The notes below the pieces were generated by a model, which searched no databases, was not told the DNA's origin, and worked only from the letters and a program-made list of their open reading frames with translations. Below, in pieces: positions 599-48,640 of a stretch of 64,000 nt of DNA (its first letter is position 1; every line of letters begins with the position of its first letter). Location: sequence record MZ311863.1, one strand, 5' to 3'. Made by a program: the position numbers and the translations under genes. Source of the stretch: Escherichia phage vB_EcoM_LNA1.

Positions 599-855
599 TT
601 TGTAAACCCTTTCTTAATGAACCAGTTGATGACACTCTTCACAAATTTACTACGATGGTAGATAAAATGTGGAGAGGGTTGGTATGAACCATAAGCCCAG
701 AAAGCGATAATTTCATTACACCCTGTGCATCGGGTACTTTCTTCAGCAATATGACCGTTGACTATTTCACTTACCTCACCTTGTAAGTCTGTACACCCAC
801 AATGTGGACATCGGATAGGTGTTCCATCAGACTCATAGCAGTGTTCAATTTTCAT
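595..855 (-). CDS. hypothetical Cys-rich (zinc-ribbon-like) protein
   Basis: 86-aa ORF with CPHCGC and CTGC pairs; start overlaps frd stop. Confidence 0.4.
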   Translation of the reverse strand: MKIEHCYESDGTPIRCPHCGCTDLQGEVSEIVNGHIAEESTRCTGCNEIIAFWAYGSYQPSPHFIYHRSKFVKSVINWFIKKGFTK

Positions 856-1371
856 TTATTTAACCTCAAAAACTGGCTCAAGAACCAATATAAAGTCTAC
901 ACAGTCATCTTCTTCATCCAGAATACCATCAAAGTTCTTAGGAACGAAGTCGAAGAGGCTCATAACAAAGCAGTCAGAAGTGACCTTGATAGTCCCTCCC
1001 ATGTTCTCTACAGTCAACACTGTACGACTTTCTTTTACCTCCCTCAGAAGATTACCCACAAAGTCGTCTAAGAAGTACTTCATCAGTGACTTGAAACCTT
1101 TAGGGTAATCTGTACCAGAGTATGTTTCAATCTGAGGAACAAGCTCAACATTTATACTAGTCTTTGTTAAGAACGTTTTAGAGAACATACTATCAGGTAA
1201 CTTACAAACAGTCTTTCCAGTACCTTCATGCTCAATCTCAACAAAACCAGCTTCGTCGCCACATGTAACTATTTTAAAAGATGCTTCATTCTCATACTGT
1301 GAAGCCATAAACTTTTTAAGCATCTCTTTAAGGAAGTCTGCATGAGCATCTTGTAAGAAGATATCAATCAT
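856..1371 (-). CDS. hypothetical protein
   Basis: 171-aa ORF tightly packed in minus-strand operon. Confidence 0.4.
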   Translation of the reverse strand: MIDIFLQDAHADFLKEMLKKFMASQYENEASFKIVTCGDEAGFVEIEHEGTGKTVCKLPDSMFSKTFLTKTSINVELVPQIETYSGTDYPKGFKSLMKYFLDDFVGNLLREVKESRTVLTVENMGGTIKVTSDCFVMSLFDFVPKNFDGILDEEDDCVDFILVLEPVFEVK

Positions 1372-5105: not shown

Positions 5106-5657
5106 TCAACTTAGTTTTGCAAACTCTCCGTGGAGTTTAATAGCAGCTTCACAGTAAGCTTTATGGGCTTCTTCAGGGGTGTCAAACATACCAAGATGAT
5201 AGTTTTTACCTTGTAAACGTATCATTGCTCGAAACCTTTTACTTATCTTCTGTACACCTTTTGGCAACCCAGATGGGGACTCTCTTGACCGATTGCAAGA
5301 GTTTTGTGAAGCTGTACAAACCCTTAAATTCAAGTACCTGTTGTCCCAACCGTCCCCATTCTTATGGTCAACCTGTAAGGTTTTATCAGGTAGATATCCA
5401 TCCATATACAAGATAACTAAACGATTTGCTTGGTAACCCCTTCCATCAATCAGCAACTGAACTGACTTGTGTCCATCAGTATTTGTTCTGTAGTTTCCAG
5501 CCCTCTTACCTCCAAATCTAGAGTTAAAGTTTGCATTACCTTCTCTAAACTTCCAAGTAAAGACCCCTGTTTCGGGGTCGTAGTCCAATAGCTCCTTAAG
5601 ACGAATTTCTGTAATCATTTCAACACCATCAATGTACCTCATACCAGCTCTTACCAA
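5106..5657 (-). CDS. HNH homing endonuclease with AP2-like DNA-binding domain
   Basis: 183 aa; HKNGDGWDNRYLNLRVCTASQN (HNH_3-like) followed by RFRAMIRLQGKNYHLGMFDTPEEAHKAY (AP2-like); starts 29 nt inside the end of DNA polymerase exon 2. Confidence 0.7.
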   Translation of the reverse strand: MVRAGMRYIDGVEMITEIRLKELLDYDPETGVFTWKFREGNANFNSRFGGKRAGNYRTNTDGHKSVQLLIDGRGYQANRLVILYMDGYLPDKTLQVDHKNGDGWDNRYLNLRVCTASQNSCNRSRESPSGLPKGVQKISKRFRAMIRLQGKNYHLGMFDTPEEAHKAYCEAAIKLHGEFAKLS

Positions 5658-6185
5658 CCTTTGCTGTACCAGTTACAAGTGTTTCTTTCCTCAAACCTAA
5701 GTTTTTTGAAGCTTGTCCATACATCCAGTCAGCAATTGCTTTCATATCCTGTGTCATACCCTCTGGACATTCCCAACTATTTTCATCGTGATATGCCAGA
5801 AGTAACCTTGCTCCGATAGCTGGTTTTCGAGCATTCAGTTTTGTCAGGCCATCTTCACAGGCTTTTCTTGCTGCTAGGTTGATGGCCTCATTCTGAATCT
5901 GTGCTTCCGAACTCATCAGGAGGTAGTTCAGGAGTTTATGTGGAGATTTGCACCATATCCATGCTCCAGCGACCCTGATATAACCACCTTTAGCAATTGA
6001 AGAATTCTTCCCAAAAACCTCTTCCAGAGCCTTTTTAGACGCCTTAAAATCGGCTTCTAAGCTGTCAAGTAACTTCTTAATCTTCGGTAGACGCATATAG
6101 TAAGTCTGCTTAGTCAATGCACCTTCTTCTGTAGATGATGCCTTGATAGTTTTTGCAAACTTCTCATCACCTGCACCGAACAATA
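5629..6185 (-). CDS. DNA polymerase (family A) exon 2: end of motif B through motif C
   Basis: begins (L)FGAGDEK matching T7 gp5 YGAGDEK of motif B; contains LLLAYHDE motif C; ORF track start is TTG, so not an independent start. Confidence 0.7.
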
Positions 6186-6453
6186 CATCTGGTCAATACA
6201 CTCGCAAGGTGTACCAGTTCTCTTATGAACTTCTCCGCATTTCTACGGAGTGTCGGACTATATCACGTAGTAGTAATACTACCGTTGCACTTGGGAATGG
6301 TCATTAGCTTACCACCCTACTCTACTCAGTTCATACATTAAGTATGCTTTTCGATAGTCTCTGAACGTTCCTCTCAAGAGGCTTCGCTGCTGATTACCGT
6401 ATCTTCTCAGACTTAGGCTTCCAGCAATTCACAACGTTTTACATGCGCCACTG
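6186..6453 (-). ncRNA. putative ORF-less group I intron in DNA polymerase gene
   Basis: splits motif B (KNGIYA / LLFGAGDEK); 5' exon ends in U, intron ends in G; intron start cagtgGCGCAtg can pair with exon end uGCGU (U.G at splice site); contains GATATAGTCCGAC resembling the Tetrahymena-type P7 core, then hairpin CTCCGTAGAAATGCGGAG (P9-like). Confidence 0.6.
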
Positions 6454-8596
6454 ACGCATAAATGCCATTTTTGGCTTTCTTACGACCTTTTGTAATCTCG
6501 TGAAGAAGTTCCTCGTCCTGTGTCCCCCTACAACGAACAATATCTTCTTCCTTGTTCAGACCAAAGTAAATACTGTTCAGTGTGTGTGCATCAGTACCTG
6601 TGTAGACTTCGTAGAGGTCATTCTCAGCATCATAACGAAGATACTTATCAGTTTCTGGATTGAGGTACTTATCAAGATGCTTGCAATAGTATCTCCCATC
6701 ATCTTGCTTAGTAAATTCTACAAACTCTTTACCTTCAGTTACCGCTTTGGTGAAGTCTTTATCACCCATAAAGTTACACAGTAAAACAAGCTGTGCAGAG
6801 TTCTGGTCAACAGAAACAATGTTAGTACCCTCTTCACAAATCCACACTTCCCTCATAGGTGCTCCATAGACAGCAGCACCAGATGGTACGTTTACAATAC
6901 CATATTGTGTCATACGTCCAGTTGAAGTACCAAATACCATTGCACCAGCACTAAGGCGACCATCGGGACGAATCTGGTTCAACCAACCTTTTTCATCATC
7001 CTTTGAGTTCTCAATAGTTCTGCGTCGGTGCATCAAAGTATAGTACTTAGCAATCTTCTGTCCAAGCTCACCTTCAATCGTATCATAAGATGATTCAGTA
7101 AGCTTTGGTGAAGTACGGATTAAGCAAGGCTCAAGCAAATCTGTGTATTTCTTCACAGACCAGTTATGCTCAATGTACTGTACACCTTCATGTTCAACAT
7201 AGCTCAAACCACACCGCTCAACCATTTCCTGCCACTTAGGATGTTTTGTAATCATCTTTTTATTGTCTTTGAAACGACAAACTTTGACAGGGCGACCATC
7301 TGAGTCTTTCTTGTAGTTCCAGTCATCTGGAATCCAACCAACTGATTTCAAGTAATCTTTAACAACTGCTACCTGAGTCATACGAGAAACTTCGAACTCA
7401 ATTGGTGTATAAGGTGCATCAATCAAACCTGTGTAGCGACTTGACTCAAGCTCAAAGTGATTAACAACATGGCTGTTATAGTACTTCACAGTTTTAACTG
7501 TTTTTACTGGCTTCCAGTCTTTGCATTTCTTACCAATCTTTGCATTCAACTCATTACAAATTGCACGAGCATCCTTCATTGCTACAAAACCTTCCTTGTA
7601 CTCTTCACCAGTTACAGAGTTGGTTGGTGTATAGCAATTTCTCTTTTCAATGTTAAAAATCTTTGTAGTTGGCTTACCAAATGGTTTGATTTCATAAGTC
7701 TGCATCTCACCATTACGTACCTGCTGACGATACTTTGTCTTAGGATACTTGGTAATTCTCTTCAGTCCATCTGCATGACCAAATGTTTCAACATACTCAT
7801 TCCAAGCTTTTGCAAACTCTTCTCCAGTGACTTTACCTTTAGTCTTAATAGTTGGAGGAAGATGTGGTTCAACTTCTGAAGCAAGCTCATTAGTCAACTT
7901 GTCAAGTTCCTTTACATGGAACTCCATAAGCTCTTTATCAGCTTTCCAACCATTGATAGCCTGTTGACTCATCCAGAAAGATGTTTCTTTAGCTCGCATG
8001 TAGGTTTCATAAGTATCTACGCCACACTTCTTTAGCTTGAGATATTCATTATCCAGTGCGCGTTTAGTTTTGGCGTTAATACGGATATCTTCCACAACAC
8101 GAGTGAAGATTTCTGCATTCCACACACCCCAATGTTCAATCTCTGGTTTACGTACACCAACACGAGCACCCCATGCAGCCAAGCCATGAGCACCTTTATA
8201 ACCTTTTGGAGTTGGTCTATCCATCCACTGAACACGGGACTGGATAAGAGAATCCTGAAAGAAATTACTCCACGGTTTACACTTTGGATTATCAAAGTTC
8301 CATAAATCCGGTGCAATGTGATTGAAAACCCACCAGTCATAACCGAGACCGTTATGGATACAAAGACGTTTTGCCTTTAACGCAAACTCAACACCTTCAC
8401 GTAAGCCACCCTTAATGTACTTAGTGTACTTGTGACCGAGGATAGGCTCATCTGTAAAGACCCATACAGGTGGCTCTTCATCGTCAGATTTATAGTCTGC
8501 AAAGGCCATTACGTGAACTTTAGTGAACTCAAGGAGTAAACCATCAGTTTCTGTATCACCAACCAAATGTAAGTTTTTAAAATCTACGTTTTCCAT
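6454..8596 (-). CDS. DNA polymerase (family A) exon 1: 3'-5' exonuclease domain through first half of motif B
   Basis: VGDTETDGL exo motif near N-terminus; VSVDQNSAQL motif A-like; ends ...RKKAKNGIYA before in-frame stop in intron. Confidence 0.75.
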
Positions 8597-8854
8597 TTTT
8601 TACTCCCTCTAAAACCATTAACCTCATACACTACTGCAAAAAATTATAAAAAGCAAGTTGACAATGCACTTGACAAGGTGTTAATCTTTGCGAAGTGGGT
8701 TTTTACTTAAAAGGTTACTTAACAGTTTAACTATACAGATACTTTAAAACTCTTAAAAGATTATTTAATAGCTTTTAAAAAGCTTTAAAGTATAACGTAT
8801 AGAATACGTTAAGATAAAAGATTAAAACTTAATAGTTACTTAAAAGAGGCTTAC

Positions 8855-9277
8855 ATGCAGAAAATGTTTGTTCACCCAGACATAGCTGACTTTGTTAGAG
8901 CTTTGCAGAAGTTGGAAGAACTTGACATTGCTGCTCAACGGGAATATGCTCACCATCACAGGAGAATGGTTGATATACAACATGAAATAGAGTTGTCTGA
9001 AAACTATGAAGATGACTTAAAATGCTCTGTATTTGAGCATATGAAAGATGTTGCTACAGCTAGACGTAAAGCTAAAGACACAGTTGCTTTACTAGATTCT
9101 CTTAAAAAGAGGTTGCAAAGTGGTACAGACCTGTGTAATCTAGCGTCACTGATTAATGATGTTGAAACTTCTTGGGATAGACATTACTATCCACGTTCTG
9201 AAAAGACACTTGACTTTTCTTCATCCGAAAACTTAAAATGTTCTAGAAAGAAACTTAACCAACTGAGAGAGAAATAA
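8855..9277 (+). CDS. hypothetical protein
   Basis: 140-aa ORF downstream of promoter-like TTGACA elements at about 8660-8690. Confidence 0.4.
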   Translation: MQKMFVHPDIADFVRALQKLEELDIAAQREYAHHHRRMVDIQHEIELSENYEDDLKCSVFEHMKDVATARRKAKDTVALLDSLKKRLQSGTDLCNLASLINDVETSWDRHYYPRSEKTLDFSSSENLKCSRKKLNQLREK

Positions 9278-9278
9278 T

Positions 9279-10091
9279 ATGAATACTACTGTAGACCAGA
9301 TGCTTGAAGAAAAAGGTATTGACGAAGCTTTCTTAATCAATGCCGTAGAAAGCATGGCTATGATTCTTCGTGGAAACAACTACACAGAACAGTTTATGCC
9401 TGCAAGCTATAACCTGCCTAAAGACAAGTCTGATAACGGTGCTTTTGCAGAACAGGTTAATATGATGCTGTGTGACAAAAAACTTGCTTTAGCATCTATT
9501 GTTGTAGGTGTTGATGCTCTTGCAGAGTTCATTTTTTATGAGATGCAGAAAAATGACTATATTGCCATGACCTCTGAAGAAAAAGACTCGCTATTGCTCT
9601 TAGATAATAATGAGCTAGTTGACCTGTTAATTTCGTCAACGAGTGCTGTTATGGCTGCTCTTGAGAAGCGCATGGAAGAGAAGCTGTCACGATATGAAAA
9701 ACTTGATTGGGGTGTAGAAGAGTTAAGCCCACGAATCAAAGAGATTATCCAGCAAACCAAAGACTCTTTAGCAGAAGCTGTGAAAGATGATTCTGTAGCT
9801 GATGTAGAACCACTACAGGTGAAGGTTGCTCTGATGATTCCAGCTATCTCTACGATGATGAATATCGTTGCACTAATCCAGCTTTCACAGATGATGGGTG
9901 CAAGCATTGAGTTCATTGAGAGCATGACTGGTGGTGTGAGTATGCAAGCAATCAATGATGTTTTGGTAAGCATCGGTGCTTCAATCATTGAAGAGAAGCT
10001 GCGCACTAACTTTGGTGATGATTTTGTGAAGCAAATCTCAGCTATGGCTGAAAAAGAACACTCACAGATTACCAGTGACCAACTGCACTAA
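9279..10091 (+). CDS. hypothetical protein
   Basis: 270-aa ORF. Confidence 0.4.
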   Translation: MNTTVDQMLEEKGIDEAFLINAVESMAMILRGNNYTEQFMPASYNLPKDKSDNGAFAEQVNMMLCDKKLALASIVVGVDALAEFIFYEMQKNDYIAMTSEEKDSLLLLDNNELVDLLISSTSAVMAALEKRMEEKLSRYEKLDWGVEELSPRIKEIIQQTKDSLAEAVKDDSVADVEPLQVKVALMIPAISTMMNIVALIQLSQMMGASIEFIESMTGGVSMQAINDVLVSIGASIIEEKLRTNFGDDFVKQISAMAEKEHSQITSDQLH

Positions 10092-40162: not shown

Positions 40163-40948
40163 ATGGGTATTGTAAAAATCATCAAAGGGGATATCTTTGA
40201 CGCCTTTGATAAAGGTAAATTTGATATCATCGGTCATGGTTGCAACTGTATGAATTTCATGGGTGCAGGTATTGCAGCAACTATTTCTAAGCGTTATCCA
40301 AAAGTGTATGATACTGACACAGAAGTTTACCTGTTTGCAGGTGGCATCCGTCACAAACCCTGTGAAAATTTACTAGGTAATTTCTCTGTAGCACGTTTAA
40401 AACAAGGTCGTATAGCTAACCTTTACACCCAACTTCATACTGGTAAAGATGCCCGATACAGTGCTTTAGAGTCATCTTTGAAACAGCTTAACAGATACTG
40501 TGAAGTTAACCAGTTGAAGAAAGTTGGCCTGCCTATGATTGGTGCAGGTATCGGTGGACTTGACCCTCAAGCTGTCACAGTTATCATCAATCAGGTGATG
40601 AAGAGCGTAGATGTTTACCTGTATGTCTACGAGGCAGAGATGTACAACAAGTTACACTCAGGTTGGAAGAACTACTGTGAACCAGAATACTTTGCGGGTG
40701 TAGTAGTGTTCACAGACAACACAGTTACCCTCTTCAGACGAAGAAAAGGTAAGATACATCAAAGTAACCCTCCGGTTGAAAAGATGTCTCTAAGTAACGC
40801 TCTAGTTACCCACCTGTCGAAGAGCAATCACAGGATTGCAGTAACATTTGGCAGCGATGCAGATGCTTACATCTATGCAAGAACTGATGAGGCTATCGAG
40901 ACGGTTTTCTCTTCACCGGAAGTTACCTTCTTAGACGCAAAGAACTAA
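40163..40948 (+). CDS. macro-domain (ADP-ribose-binding/processing) protein
   Basis: 261 aa; IIGHGCNCMNFMGAGIAATI resembles macro-domain N-x(5)-GGG-[VI]-x(2)-AI region. Confidence 0.5.
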   Translation: MGIVKIIKGDIFDAFDKGKFDIIGHGCNCMNFMGAGIAATISKRYPKVYDTDTEVYLFAGGIRHKPCENLLGNFSVARLKQGRIANLYTQLHTGKDARYSALESSLKQLNRYCEVNQLKKVGLPMIGAGIGGLDPQAVTVIINQVMKSVDVYLYVYEAEMYNKLHSGWKNYCEPEYFAGVVVFTDNTVTLFRRRKGKIHQSNPPVEKMSLSNALVTHLSKSNHRIAVTFGSDADAYIYARTDEAIETVFSSPEVTFLDAKN

Positions 40949-41020
40949 GAAAACTCTGTAGAATATTCACAATAGACTAAGCCTTTCTTATCTGGTAAAT
41001 TTTTCAGGTAAGGAGGGCTT

Positions 41021-41218
41021 TTTCATTTCAGGATTGTGCAGGTAGAGTTCTGGACAGAAATCTGTAGAGAGAATTTTGAACTCCAAAGAGAAAATTCATT
41101 TTCAAATTGTGCAGGTAATCTCCAAAGAGCTTTTTCATTTTCAAAACGTGCAGAGAAAAATCAGGTCGGGCAAGAAAAATCATTTTAGAATTGTGCAGGT
41201 AGGTGGGTGCAGGTGGGG
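41021..41218. repeat. iteron-like direct repeats
   Basis: four copies of about 25 bp CATTTTCA-N3-5-TTGTGCAGGTA (41021-41046, 41091-41119, 41130-41155, 41176-41203) plus gtgggtgcaggtgggg, followed by AT-rich stretch. Confidence 0.55.
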
Positions 41219-41377
41219 ATGTCGCCATTTCTCACAAGGCTACCACATCCGAAAAGAAAAGTCAACAGAAAAATTTGTAGCGGATTGAAAAATAATTCTT
41301 GATTTGTGTTCTGTTTTGTGGTATTCGCGCGCACCCGTTTCATTGCATTTTTGCCAAAAATATTTTTAAAATTTTTC

Positions 41378-41406
41378 TTGACTATTCGAACGGGGTTATC
41401 TAGTAT
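41378..41406 (+). promoter_or_regulatory. sigma70-like promoter
   Basis: TTGACT-17 nt-TAGTAT upstream of first small-gene cassette. Confidence 0.45.
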
Positions 41407-41411
41407 TTGCA

Positions 41412-41469
41412 TCAACGGGGAGGAAATGACTTCCCCACTAAATAAACCCTTAAACTAGGAGATTCTAAA
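41412..41469 (+). promoter_or_regulatory. leader cassette type A (copy 1)
   Basis: TCAACGGGGAGG(A/G)AATGAC(C)TTCCCCACTAAATAAA(g/c)cCTTAAACTAGGAGATTC(a/t)AAA-ATG; hairpin directly upstream of SD. Confidence 0.5.
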
Positions 41470-41658
41470 ATGGCATCAAGAAAAATTAAAGTTGGCGATG
41501 AGGTTAACATCAAGCACGAATATTCTTACAAAATGCTAACTATCCGCTCTTATAAGGTTTATCAGGTGGAAGCTATCCACGAAGATAACACTTTTTCCTT
41601 AAAAGGTTATAGCGAACGTTTCCCTGCTGAACTCTTTGAGAAATGGAGCGCGAAATAA
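41470..41658 (+). CDS. small hypothetical protein (cassette gene)
   Basis: 62 aa; preceded by type A leader. Confidence 0.4.
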   Translation: MASRKIKVGDEVNIKHEYSYKMLTIRSYKVYQVEAIHEDNTFSLKGYSERFPAELFEKWSAK

Positions 41659-46990: not shown

Positions 46991-48640
46991 CTTCAAAGCT
47001 CCTTTTCATAGGGGCTTTTTTACGTCTTATCGAATCCCTATACAATCCCTTTCCCTTTCCTTTCCAGAATCTCTCCCACTGATTCGATAGAATCTATCTC
47101 AGACCTTAAAAAGCAATAACTCTGTAGCTTATCCTATAGCCTTTTATCAAATCAACTTAAATATAAGCCCATAACCCGAAAGGGAAGGGCAACCATTTAA
47201 ACGCCCTATAAAGCCCTATAACGGCCTTTTTAACCTAACTTAAGGGATTGCATTACCTCACCCTTAAAAGCCCTTTATAAAGCTTCCCAGAGCCTTAAAA
47301 GAATCTTATAAGGGTGTAAGCTTTATCATCTCGTTAGTATTCTTGTGAATAACTAAAAAGGGCTTGTCAGTGTCTTAAAAGTATGTTATAGGGGCTATAA
47401 AGTTACTTCAAAGTTACGTGATAGATAGCTTAAAAGTTACGTAAATGCTAGCCCCCTTAACATTTTCTTAACAATTTCTTAACAAACCCTACATAGTTAT
47501 GCTTGTTAGGGACTTGTTAGCAACTTGTTAAATCTCTGTTACAACCATGTAAAAGCCTTGTAAGAACCTTTGACATAGCCTTTAAAGCTCCTGTAAAGCC
47601 CTATAAAGGGCTATCCATACAGTTGAGGGGTAAATACTAGGGAGAGCCTGAAAAGAGCCTATAAAGGGCTATAGAGAGCTTTTAAAAGGGCTATTTAGAG
47701 AGTCACTAAGAGGGAAAGGGAACGATAAGAAAAGAATAGTGACCATGTTAATAGCCTGTTAAAAAGATTAAACACTTGTTAGGAACTTGTTAATTATCTT
47801 AACAAAATAACCCTTTAAAATTAACTTGTTAACTCTTGTTAGTCATCTGTTAAGACTCTGTAAAGACCATATAGCAACTGTTAAGGAACTGTTACCCTCT
47901 TGTTAAAACTGTTAAAAATCTGTTAATACCTCTGAAGAGATGTTAAAAAGATGTGAGAACTGTTGAGAGATTGTTAATGATATTTTAAAATTTTGCAAAG
48001 GGGGTGTTAAGGAGCTGTTAAGGGCTACCAAGCAGATATACATCTTCTACAGATATTTTTCAGTTCCTTCAAAAACCCTAAAAAATGACTTGATAGTCCT
48101 ATTTTATAAAAATTTTAAAAATCTGAATAATTACCCAGACAGTCTTTTAAAAATACAGGCATAAACAGGCTTATAAGATACCTTGTTAGTACCGTGTTAG
48201 ACCTTGTGAGATAAGGTCTGTAAAGATATTCCTGTTAAGTTTGTTAAAACAGTCTATATAGAGGCTTAGTAATACCTAGTGAACACCTATAGAGGGTAAC
48301 ATAGCTTACCTAGAGATTAAGAGGTGTATAGGAGCTTCTAAGAGGGTGTAGAGGTATGGTTAAGGTGATTGTATAGGTTGTTAAGAAGGCTTGTTAGAAG
48401 AGTGTTTAGAAGGACTATACAGAGGGGCTATTAAGACCACTAGATAGATACTAAGATGCTATATAGTACTATATAACTATATAGAGAGTAAGATTAAGAA
48501 GGTTGTTAAGAAGGATAGATATTTTATTCACATATGATGGTGACCCAGAGGTTGGGACAACCGATAAAATTTTATAAAAAATATAAATTTCGTAAATTTT
48601 ACTCAATAAAAAGCCCCCAATTAAGGAGGCTCTTAAGATA
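46985..48640. repeat. ORF-free region dense in short direct repeats
   Basis: no ORF of 60 aa or more on either strand across about 1.65 kb; more than 30 copies of YTGTTAR (cttgttag, ctgttaa, ttgttaa), plus recurring CTTAAAAG and TATAAAGGGCTAT words. Confidence 0.6.

Follow-up and report, generated by a model that had tools for sequence, protein, structure and literature searches.

A conserved array of four direct repeats behind the macro-domain gene of a Felixounavirus-type phage, a predicted multi-site protein-binding locus

Direct repeats which serve in the initiation of replication are best known from the iteron arrays of theta plasmids and of lambdoid and P1-type origins, in which asymmetric sites of the same orientation succeed each other every 22 bp or so. 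Lambda ori has four 19-bp iterons that are bound by the O protein and, among virulent myoviruses, T4 has an origin with short direct repeats, oriE, in which iterons are associated with RepEA and RepEB. The main T4 origins act via promoter-driven R-loops, and T7-type replisomes need no iteron-binding initiators. Distal multi-site operators and enhancer-like arrays likewise place several sites for one protein side by side ahead of a promoter. Finally, the injection stop signal of T5 is a conserved non-coding repeat region located 7.9% from the entering end of the genome (bioRxiv 10.1101/866236). An array of direct repeats bound by a protein is a familiar kind of element; the one described here appears to be new as an element of the Felix O1 subfamily.

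Felix O1 is a classic phage in the typing, diagnostics and biocontrol of Salmonella, and relatives such as Bas63, wV8 and phiEa21-4 are in wide use. To our knowledge, no origin, temporal regulator or non-coding control element has been defined in the Ounavirinae apart from the terminal repeat. Literature searches returned no paper pairing "Felix O1" with "iterons", no description of the array and no Felixounavirus transcriptome paper, and the PhageMaP paper on Bas63 gives no data on this gap. The analysis of Felix O1 by Whichard et al. (2010; PMC3185647) describes no origin, and the repeats given there are others than those of the array.

The DNA analysed is a stretch of 64,000 nucleotides (the window). 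In the region of the array it shares 90-93% identity with Felix O1-like phages from Salmonella, E. coli and Shigella and, by its sequence, the source phage is a member of the genus Felixounavirus in the subfamily Ounavirinae. The array occupies a non-coding gap between the macro-domain gene and the first small gene, given as 520 bp in a preliminary description and measured here at 521 bp (40949-41469). The features of the locus are the following.

40163-40948, left of the gap: macro-domain ORF (261 aa, Pfam Macro)
40979-41020, plus strand: intrinsic terminator of the macro-domain gene, a 17-pair stem then a T run
41019-41044, plus strand (core 41023-41040): unit 1, TTTTT-TCATTTCAGGATTGTGCA-GGTA
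41049-41072, plus strand: possible truncated relic unit (TCTGGACAGAAAT-CTGTAGAGAGA), a by-eye match to the extended consensus
41081-41090, plus strand: spacer motif CTCCAAAGAG, 5' extension of unit 2, from the repeat family and conserved in relatives
41091-41117, plus strand (core 41096-41113): unit 2, AAAAT-TCATTTTCAAATTGTGCA-GGTA
41120-41129, plus strand: spacer motif CTCCAAAGAG, 5' extension of unit 3, from the repeat family and conserved in relatives
41130-41156, plus strand (core 41135-41152): unit 3, CTTTT-TCATTTTCAAAACGTGCA-GAGA
41175-41201, plus strand (core 41180-41197): unit 4, AAAAA-TCATTTTAGAATTGTGCA-GGTA
41203-41218, plus strand: G-rich tail GTGGGTGCAGGTGGGG after unit 4
41256-41330, plus strand: conserved non-coding block (AAAGTCAACAGAAAAATTTGTAGCGGATTGAAAAATAATTCTTGATTTG...) between array and promoter, from the conservation profile
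41378-41406, plus strand: predicted sigma70-type promoter TTGACT-17-TAGTAT, first promoter of the small-gene region
41411-41469, plus strand: 5' leader with a hairpin (GGGGAGGAAATGACTTCCCC) and a Shine-Dalgarno site, preceding the first small gene
41470-41658, plus strand: first small ORF right of the gap (62 aa), first in a run of small plus-strand ORFs

The four units are direct copies of the form [A/T tract]-TCATTT-N7-GTGCA, with cores that start at 41023, 41096, 41135 and 41180 and are spaced by 73, 39 and 45 bp from start to start. The four copies of a ca. 25-bp unit and the tail announced in the preliminary description are present where it placed them, and the comparison of the units that it proposed showed the core to be common to all four. 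Each site is bipartite, the centres of TCATTT and GTGC(A) being about 12 bp apart or roughly one helical turn, and every core is preceded by a tract of 4-5 A or T; in unit 1, the T-run of the macro-gene terminator passes straight into this tract. Unit 3 has an odd 3' flank, GAGA versus GGTA in units 1, 2 and 4, and is also odd in relatives. The tail contains a fifth half-unit, GTGCAGGT (41207-41214), in a segment that is hypervariable, with 30-38% identity to relatives and a C-rich tract in Felix O1 and phiEa21-4. Inside the 73-bp spacer, segment 41049-41072 may possibly represent a truncated relic unit, an assignment made with low confidence on sequence resemblance; it holds the single exact copy of AATCTGTAGAGA in the window and, considered as a second motif, AATCTGTAGAGA showed no convincing enrichment (16 found versus 9.8 expected, with 5 of 100 shuffles reaching 16).

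A unit logo built from 98 distinct units of 58 related loci has TCATTT and GTGCA as invariant parts, separated by seven mostly A/T positions. The tract of 4-5 nt before the core is all A or all T, the choice for a given unit varying between lineages, and is itself preceded by a conserved 5' extension, T-C-N-G-G-A-G-A-G, that corresponds to the spacer motif CTCCAAAGAG.

In the 64-kb window, the core TCATTT-N7-GTGCA has exactly four copies, all of them within the array and on the plus strand, versus 0.085 in shuffled sequences, and the expectation in shuffles for the full 22-mer with up to three mismatches is 0.00; from these counts, the array is real and far beyond chance. The complete 89.5-kb genome of ASO1B likewise contains exactly four cores, all in the array and on one strand. 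A single array per genome agrees with an origin or some other unique cis element and does not agree with a promoter family, a candidate that was rejected in view of the lack of further copies in the window or in the 89.5-kb relative and of any promoter match inside the array.

Immediately 3' to the macro-domain gene, an equivalent array was found in each of six Ounavirinae lineages, namely Felixounavirus, Suspvirus, Mooglevirus, Kolesnikvirus, Hafnia phage Zyzzx and an uncultured IMG/VR lineage (contigs L037 and L260), with TCATTT-N7-GTGC invariant across all six. Most genomes have four units, with three in the Si3/phiWec172 type and about five in L037. Spacings are of 73-77, 39-41 and 45 bp in Felixounavirus, Suspvirus and Mooglevirus, and of 37, 37 and 39 bp in Kolesnikvirus (Erwinia phages). 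The macro proteins encoded next to the array are only 35-42% identical between lineages and the genes downstream of it are unrelated. In blastn comparisons with Erwinia phages, the array was the sole part of the gap that could still be aligned, by way of unit 4 and its 5' flank GGTCGGGCAAG. When compared to Mooglevirus, identity is 83% in the units versus 64% in the spacers, 36% in the tail and about 70-79% in the promoter region. The 3' arm and T-run of the macro-gene terminator are invariant in 30 aligned Felix O1-, Susp- and Moogle-type relatives, and the terminator region overall is 64-67% identical to Mooglevirus-type sequences; the annotations of KhF2 and ASO1B list it as a rho-independent terminator.

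Scans for a two-unit pattern in collections of viral, metagenomic and bacterial genome sequences detected no array outside Ounavirinae-type contigs, the other matches being unrelated perfect tandem repeats or coding repeats. BLAST searches of plasmids gave no counterpart, and no such array follows the macro-domain genes of other phages such as the T4-like ones. Occurring once per genome, the array is the best-conserved non-coding element that was found outside the terminal repeat, and as such it offers a concrete and small target, four sites of about 26 bp, which could be used for finding the binder, for mapping replication starts, and in engineering, either as a place to leave untouched or to make the replication of a plasmid depend on the phage.

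The 3' flank of the units reads AGGTA in the Felix-, Susp- and Moogle-type phages, ATAGG in Kolesnikvirus and the IMG/VR lineage, and TTATAA in Zyzzx; depending on the lineage, the flanked form is GTGCAGGTA, GTGCATAGG or GTGCTTATAA and is nearly uniform inside each genome. As the flank changes jointly in the units of a lineage, it would have co-evolved with a binding protein that is lineage-specific and hence probably phage-encoded. We read this concerted change as the pattern that would be expected for a cognate phage protein rather than for a fixed host factor, and gene conversion between units possibly helped it along. Since the motif is found nowhere else in the genome yet is kept in every lineage examined, we infer that proteins dock here, and the array is predicted with good confidence to be a multi-site binding locus for a DNA-binding protein specified by the phage. 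The broader proposal of the preliminary description, a cis-acting array of repeated binding sites resembling iterons or an operator, is in this respect borne out by the uniqueness of the array, its presence in six lineages, the better conservation of units than of spacers and the concerted flank change.

The function served by such a locus is less clear-cut, the hallmarks of an origin and of an operator both being lacking, so that sequence does not decide between them. With iteron arrays the locus shares three to five asymmetric sites of ca. 20-26 bp that have the same orientation and are unique in the genome, an A/T-rich promoter region within 200 bp, and sites that shift in concert between lineages; at least three direct repeats of one asymmetric site of ca. 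17-25 bp are expected at an iteron origin, and there are four here. It differs by the spacing of its units, 37-45 bp (73-77 bp for the first gap) versus about 22 bp, which also puts them out of phase: the values of 73/39/45 in the window, and of 75/41/45 and 37/37/39 in relatives, have no helical phase in common, the short ones corresponding to 3.5-4.3 turns. The cognate initiator of iteron systems has no recognisable equivalent. None of the ten neighbouring ORFs encodes a Rep, O, RepA or DnaA-type initiator or belongs to a DNA-binding family according to Pfam and PHROGs, no initiator family was detected by the same means among the window proteins tested elsewhere, and no RepEA or RepEB homologue was recognised among the proteins tested. 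The likeness with T4 oriE is that of a myovirus origin with short direct repeats, the sequences being unrelated. Of the window proteins tested, only an XRE-type HTH protein encoded at 1746-2078, 39 kb from the array, is a clear DNA binder. The gap (40949-41470) has no match to the DnaA box (TTWTNCACA) or to the IHF site (WATCARNNNNTTR), two consensus motifs that are found with iterons.

The AT-rich tract reported to follow the repeats does exist, but it begins ca. 150 bp past the last unit and corresponds to the UP element and -35 region of the sigma70-type promoter (A/T-rich UP region at about 41347-41377). It includes the least stable 40-bp stretch of the gap (41347), which ranks in the top 0.6% of the window and only in the top 10% when 100 bp are considered. 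Across the whole window, GC skew tracks the orientation of the genes, with no shift where the array lies. "Classic architecture of an iteron-type origin", as the array had been called, is therefore overstated: helical register, initiator gene, DnaA and IHF consensus and skew change are all missing and the AT tract is a promoter UP region. Moreover, the primase-helicase of this phage is T7 gp4-like (Toprim and DnaB_C), and T7-like replisomes are of a type not known to use iterons. A more origin-like place is the AT-rich divergent region 8600-9279, located between the DNA polymerase gene (minus strand) and the primase-helicase block, which contains the least stable 100-bp window of the 64 kb together with a 55-bp near-palindrome, several divergent promoters and a switch in the sign of GC skew. 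Whichard et al. (PMC3185647) assumed the start of early divergent transcription at the equivalent region.

As a leading guess, held tentatively and ahead of the operator or insulator and end-linked roles considered below, the array would nonetheless be a replication origin or replisome-loading site, the replication role being inferred in the same way as the binding itself. In such a scheme, the same-orientation sites (four here, three to five in relatives) would be bound by a sequence-specific and most likely phage-encoded protein, making the array a cis-acting nucleoprotein assembly site. Its occupied sites and the transcription that starts at the strong promoter 176 bp downstream could jointly open the DNA for helicase loading, and the array would serve as origin or loading site for a T7-like replisome composed of the gp4-like primase-helicase and a family-A polymerase.

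A transcriptional role is rather unlikely as an alternative, although the locus lends itself to it by position. A phage protein coating the array would act as a distal operator or enhancer for the first small-gene promoter, or as a roadblock backing the macro-gene terminator; in an insulator version, it would keep the upstream rII-macro transcription unit apart from the terminal small-gene module. The array indeed lies exactly in the space that separates the conserved terminator from the small-gene region's first sigma70-type promoter, unit 1 overlaps the terminator T-run in all lineages, and the array forms a border at which conserved synteny, to the left, gives way to small, hypervariable genes to the right. 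The promoter itself has an equivalent in Felix O1 (TTGACA-17-TACTAT). In addition, an XRE-type HTH regulator is encoded in the window. However, from the sequences, the distance between unit 4 and the -35 element (41378) is 176 bp in the window and about 110-260 bp in other lineages, so that there is no fixed geometry between operator and promoter. XRE-type dimers usually bind palindromes, whereas the units are asymmetric. No regulator gene adjoins the array among the neighbouring ORFs, the sole HTH gene being the one 39 kb off. Very similar sister cassette promoters and leaders do without such sites: a nearly identical 5' leader (41411-41475) recurs upstream of seven further small genes, and the leader at 41411-41469 is part of the small-gene cassettes and not of the array. 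What the locus has in common with distal multi-site operators and enhancer-like arrays is a group of adjacent sites for one protein ahead of a promoter; asymmetric sites, a variable promoter distance, the lack of an adjacent regulator and site-free sister promoters set it apart. The "multi-site operator" of the preliminary description did not hold up for the same reasons, the asymmetric sites lying at least 176 bp upstream of the nearest promoter, at a variable distance and with no regulator gene next to them. Two further observations were made in this part of the gap: the ASO1B annotation has a promoter at the position equivalent to 41378-41406, and the conserved block 41256-41330 includes a weak -35-like TTGATT.

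Beyond these known kinds of elements, it is conceivable, but improbable, that the array is the site of an Ounavirinae-specific protein and a new cis element altogether, either an origin with a novel initiator or a polar boundary of DNA entry or expression. In the former case, this would be the long-missing origin of Felix O1, with an initiator unrelated to Rep, O or DnaA that feeds a T7-like replisome. In the latter, a T5-like two-step strategy would exist in a contractile-tailed phage and would stage a terminal module for host takeover.

The position of the array relative to the genome ends bears on this last point. The terminal repeat was mapped to 47451-48031 of the window, about 6.2 kb past the array. 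The 608-bp terminal repeat of UAB_Phi87 (PMC4837284, Fig. S1) maps to 47459-48031, and the 613-bp repeat of Ro111lw (PMC6454146), found at both ends of its record, starts at the equivalent of 47451 and ends at that of 48029. The array as the terminal repeat itself, or as a pac or cos site, was rejected since the ends of these two phages map to 47451-48031. In Ro111lw (86,950 bp), 6.4 kb separate it from the right repeat further on, and the physical right end is 7.0-7.2 kb (8%) away, with only small genes in between, for which several promoters are annotated in ASO1B. The opposite end of the genome carries the endolysin and tail genes, from which the right end plausibly enters first.

An element linked to the genome end, either a T5-like injection stop that would pause DNA entry once the first ca. 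8%, with the small host-takeover genes, is inside, or an accessory site that would work with the terminal repeat in recognising or organising the ends, ranks behind the transcriptional role, and we regard it as distinctly unlikely. The arguments in its favour are the array's placement 8% from the right end, behind an interval filled solely by small, individually promoted genes, and the comparable placement of the T5 stop signal, also made of non-coding conserved repeats. The similarity with the T5 signal (Repeat Region 3 of the left terminal repeat) extends to the terminal block that it bounds, in T5 the first-step-transfer region, where the early genes are small and poorly conserved and have host-type promoters, and to a non-coding element that is better conserved than the neighbouring ORFs (bioRxiv 10.1101/866236). 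By contrast, the T5 signal extends over 1.2 kb within a 10-kb terminal repeat and is built of nested inverted repeats, palindromes and paired DnaA boxes. None of this is seen at the array, which consists of four simple direct repeats, lacks a DnaA consensus and lies 6.4 kb from a terminal repeat of 0.6 kb, in a phage with a contractile tail. On this comparison, the parallel is best taken as positional only. We know of no report of two-step entry for Felix O1-type phages or other myoviruses, and a distance of 6.4 kb to the cut sites is too large for a terminase recognition site.

The IMG/VR contigs L037 and L260 provide a further argument that cuts both ways. In these, a TTAACA-rich block begins only a few bases after the array. 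Its start matches the first ca. 30 nt of the Felix-type terminal repeat and it has the same motif density as that repeat; both contigs end within about 0.7 kb of the block. Such a junction between array and terminal-repeat-like sequence speaks for a link with the genome end. If the block is a terminal repeat, however, the array bounds no entering module there and is end-linked rather than an inner boundary, which weakens the stop-signal version and brings the two end-linked versions into conflict.

It is very unlikely that the repeats are clustered host DnaA boxes serving to recruit or titrate DnaA. In Kolesnikvirus, the 3' halves of the units (TGTGCATAG or CGTGCATAA) agree with the complement of the DnaA box, TGTGNAWAA, at 7 of 8 specified positions, and those of the IMG/VR lineage do so at 5-7 of 8. 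The window and all Felix-, Susp- and Moogle-type phages, however, read TGTGCAGGT (4-6 of 8, mostly 5) and Zyzzx reads GTGCTTAT. Since these enterobacterial hosts all have essentially one and the same DnaA box, such lineage-specific drift counts against DnaA, which would also leave the conserved 5' half TCATTT unexplained. With no consensus box in the gap, and 11 in the window versus 8.3 expected, a DnaA-box cluster is unsupported for this phage.

More improbable still, and largely refuted, is a function of the repeats at the RNA level, as a structured non-coding transcript or a sponge for protein, or as the coding sequence of a small repeat protein. Several frames do run through the array free of stops for 45-71 codons and ORFs have been annotated over it (Felix O1 ORF31-34, Moogle gp115, KPS64 gp126 and Ro111lw 00140), but a coding repeat was rejected because spacings of 39, 41, 37 and 73-77 bp break the frame within and between lineages and leave the units in different frames, and a structured RNA or Rfam family because folding was no better than that of shuffled sequences (z = -0.05 and +0.21 on the two strands) and no Rfam family came near its gathering threshold, the array moreover lying after a strong terminator with no promoter predicted inside it on either strand. 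Several of the GenBank ORFs drawn over the array are probably spurious; in the records, these are annotated on either the minus or the plus strand.

In Kolesnikvirus (Erwinia phages; loci L004, at 2002-2140, L036 and L043), each of the four array units has a 3' half that is a near-consensus DnaA box, which reads TGTGCATAG or CGTGCATAA and matches the consensus at 7 of the 8 specified positions. This does not hold for the array versions in phages of E. coli and Salmonella. Among the window proteins tested, a single one was recognised as a clearly sequence-specific DNA-binding protein, and it is a candidate for the array binder:

1746-2078, - strand: 110-aa protein with an XRE/Cro-type helix-turn-helix at its C-terminus

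An alternative origin candidate to the array is the divergent region that separates the DNA polymerase gene from the primase-helicase block:

8600-9279: very A/T-rich divergent intergenic region, with the DNA polymerase gene (- strand) on one side and the primase-helicase block (+ strand) on the other
6413-8596 and 5629-6183, - strand: family-A DNA polymerase, as two ORFs
5106-5657, - strand: HNH endonuclease ORF, directly downstream of polymerase ORF 5629-6183 and overlapping it

The divergent region contains the lowest-stability 100-bp window of all 64 kb, at about 8745. A near-palindrome of 55 bp spans 8739-8793, CTTAAAAG-type repeats and several promoter-like sites are also present, and the GC skew changes sign within the region. 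In the related phage ASO1B, the polymerase is encoded by a single 2.7-kb gene, likewise with an adjoining HNH gene.

The small genes that follow the array extend to a homologue of the Felix O1-type direct terminal repeat, located inside a 1.2-kb non-coding region in which + and - strand transcription converge:

47451-48031: homologue of the direct terminal repeat (ca. 610 bp), which corresponds to the physical genome ends

Short repeats of the TGTTAA/TTAACA and CTTGTAA types are crowded there, with 7-8 per 200 bp vs. three at most elsewhere. Over its first ca. 30 nt, the Felix-type repeat matches the start of a TTAACA-rich block found in an Ounavirinae-like uncultured lineage, represented by two IMG/VR contigs, L037 (88,375 bp) and L260 (84,893 bp):

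L037, about 600-1010 (- strand), and L260, 2100-2520: macro-domain gene, array and TTAACA-rich block

In this lineage, a short macro-domain gene (148 aa) is followed by the array and then directly by the TTAACA-rich block, and each contig stops no more than about 0.7 kb from that block. The genome end and the array may be adjacent in this lineage.

Two further features concern the array and its 3' flank:

41028-41415, both strands: ORFs annotated over the array in GenBank records, also at equivalent positions in relatives
41203-41255: hypervariable segment directly 3' of unit 4, the last array unit

The array-crossing ORFs (Felix O1 ORF31-34, Moogle gp115, KPS64 gp126 and Ro111lw 00140) do not keep their frame from one lineage to another and are probably artefacts of annotation. 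The hypervariable segment is G-rich on the + strand in the window and in many relatives, while Felix O1, ASO1B and phiEa21-4 have instead a long C-rich tract (CCCAGCCCCTCTCCCCCTC...) that could be Rho-utilisation-like or R-loop-prone.

Finally, in the interval that runs from the array to the terminal repeat, at least eight small genes are each preceded by a nearly identical 5' leader, which could serve as an RNA-processing site, a translational control site or a recombination substrate for cassette shuffling:

41411-41475: 5' leader, with a hairpin (GGGGAGGAAATGACTTCCCC) and a Shine-Dalgarno site
About 41928, 43077, 43945, 44254, 45162, 45727 and 46652: further leader copies
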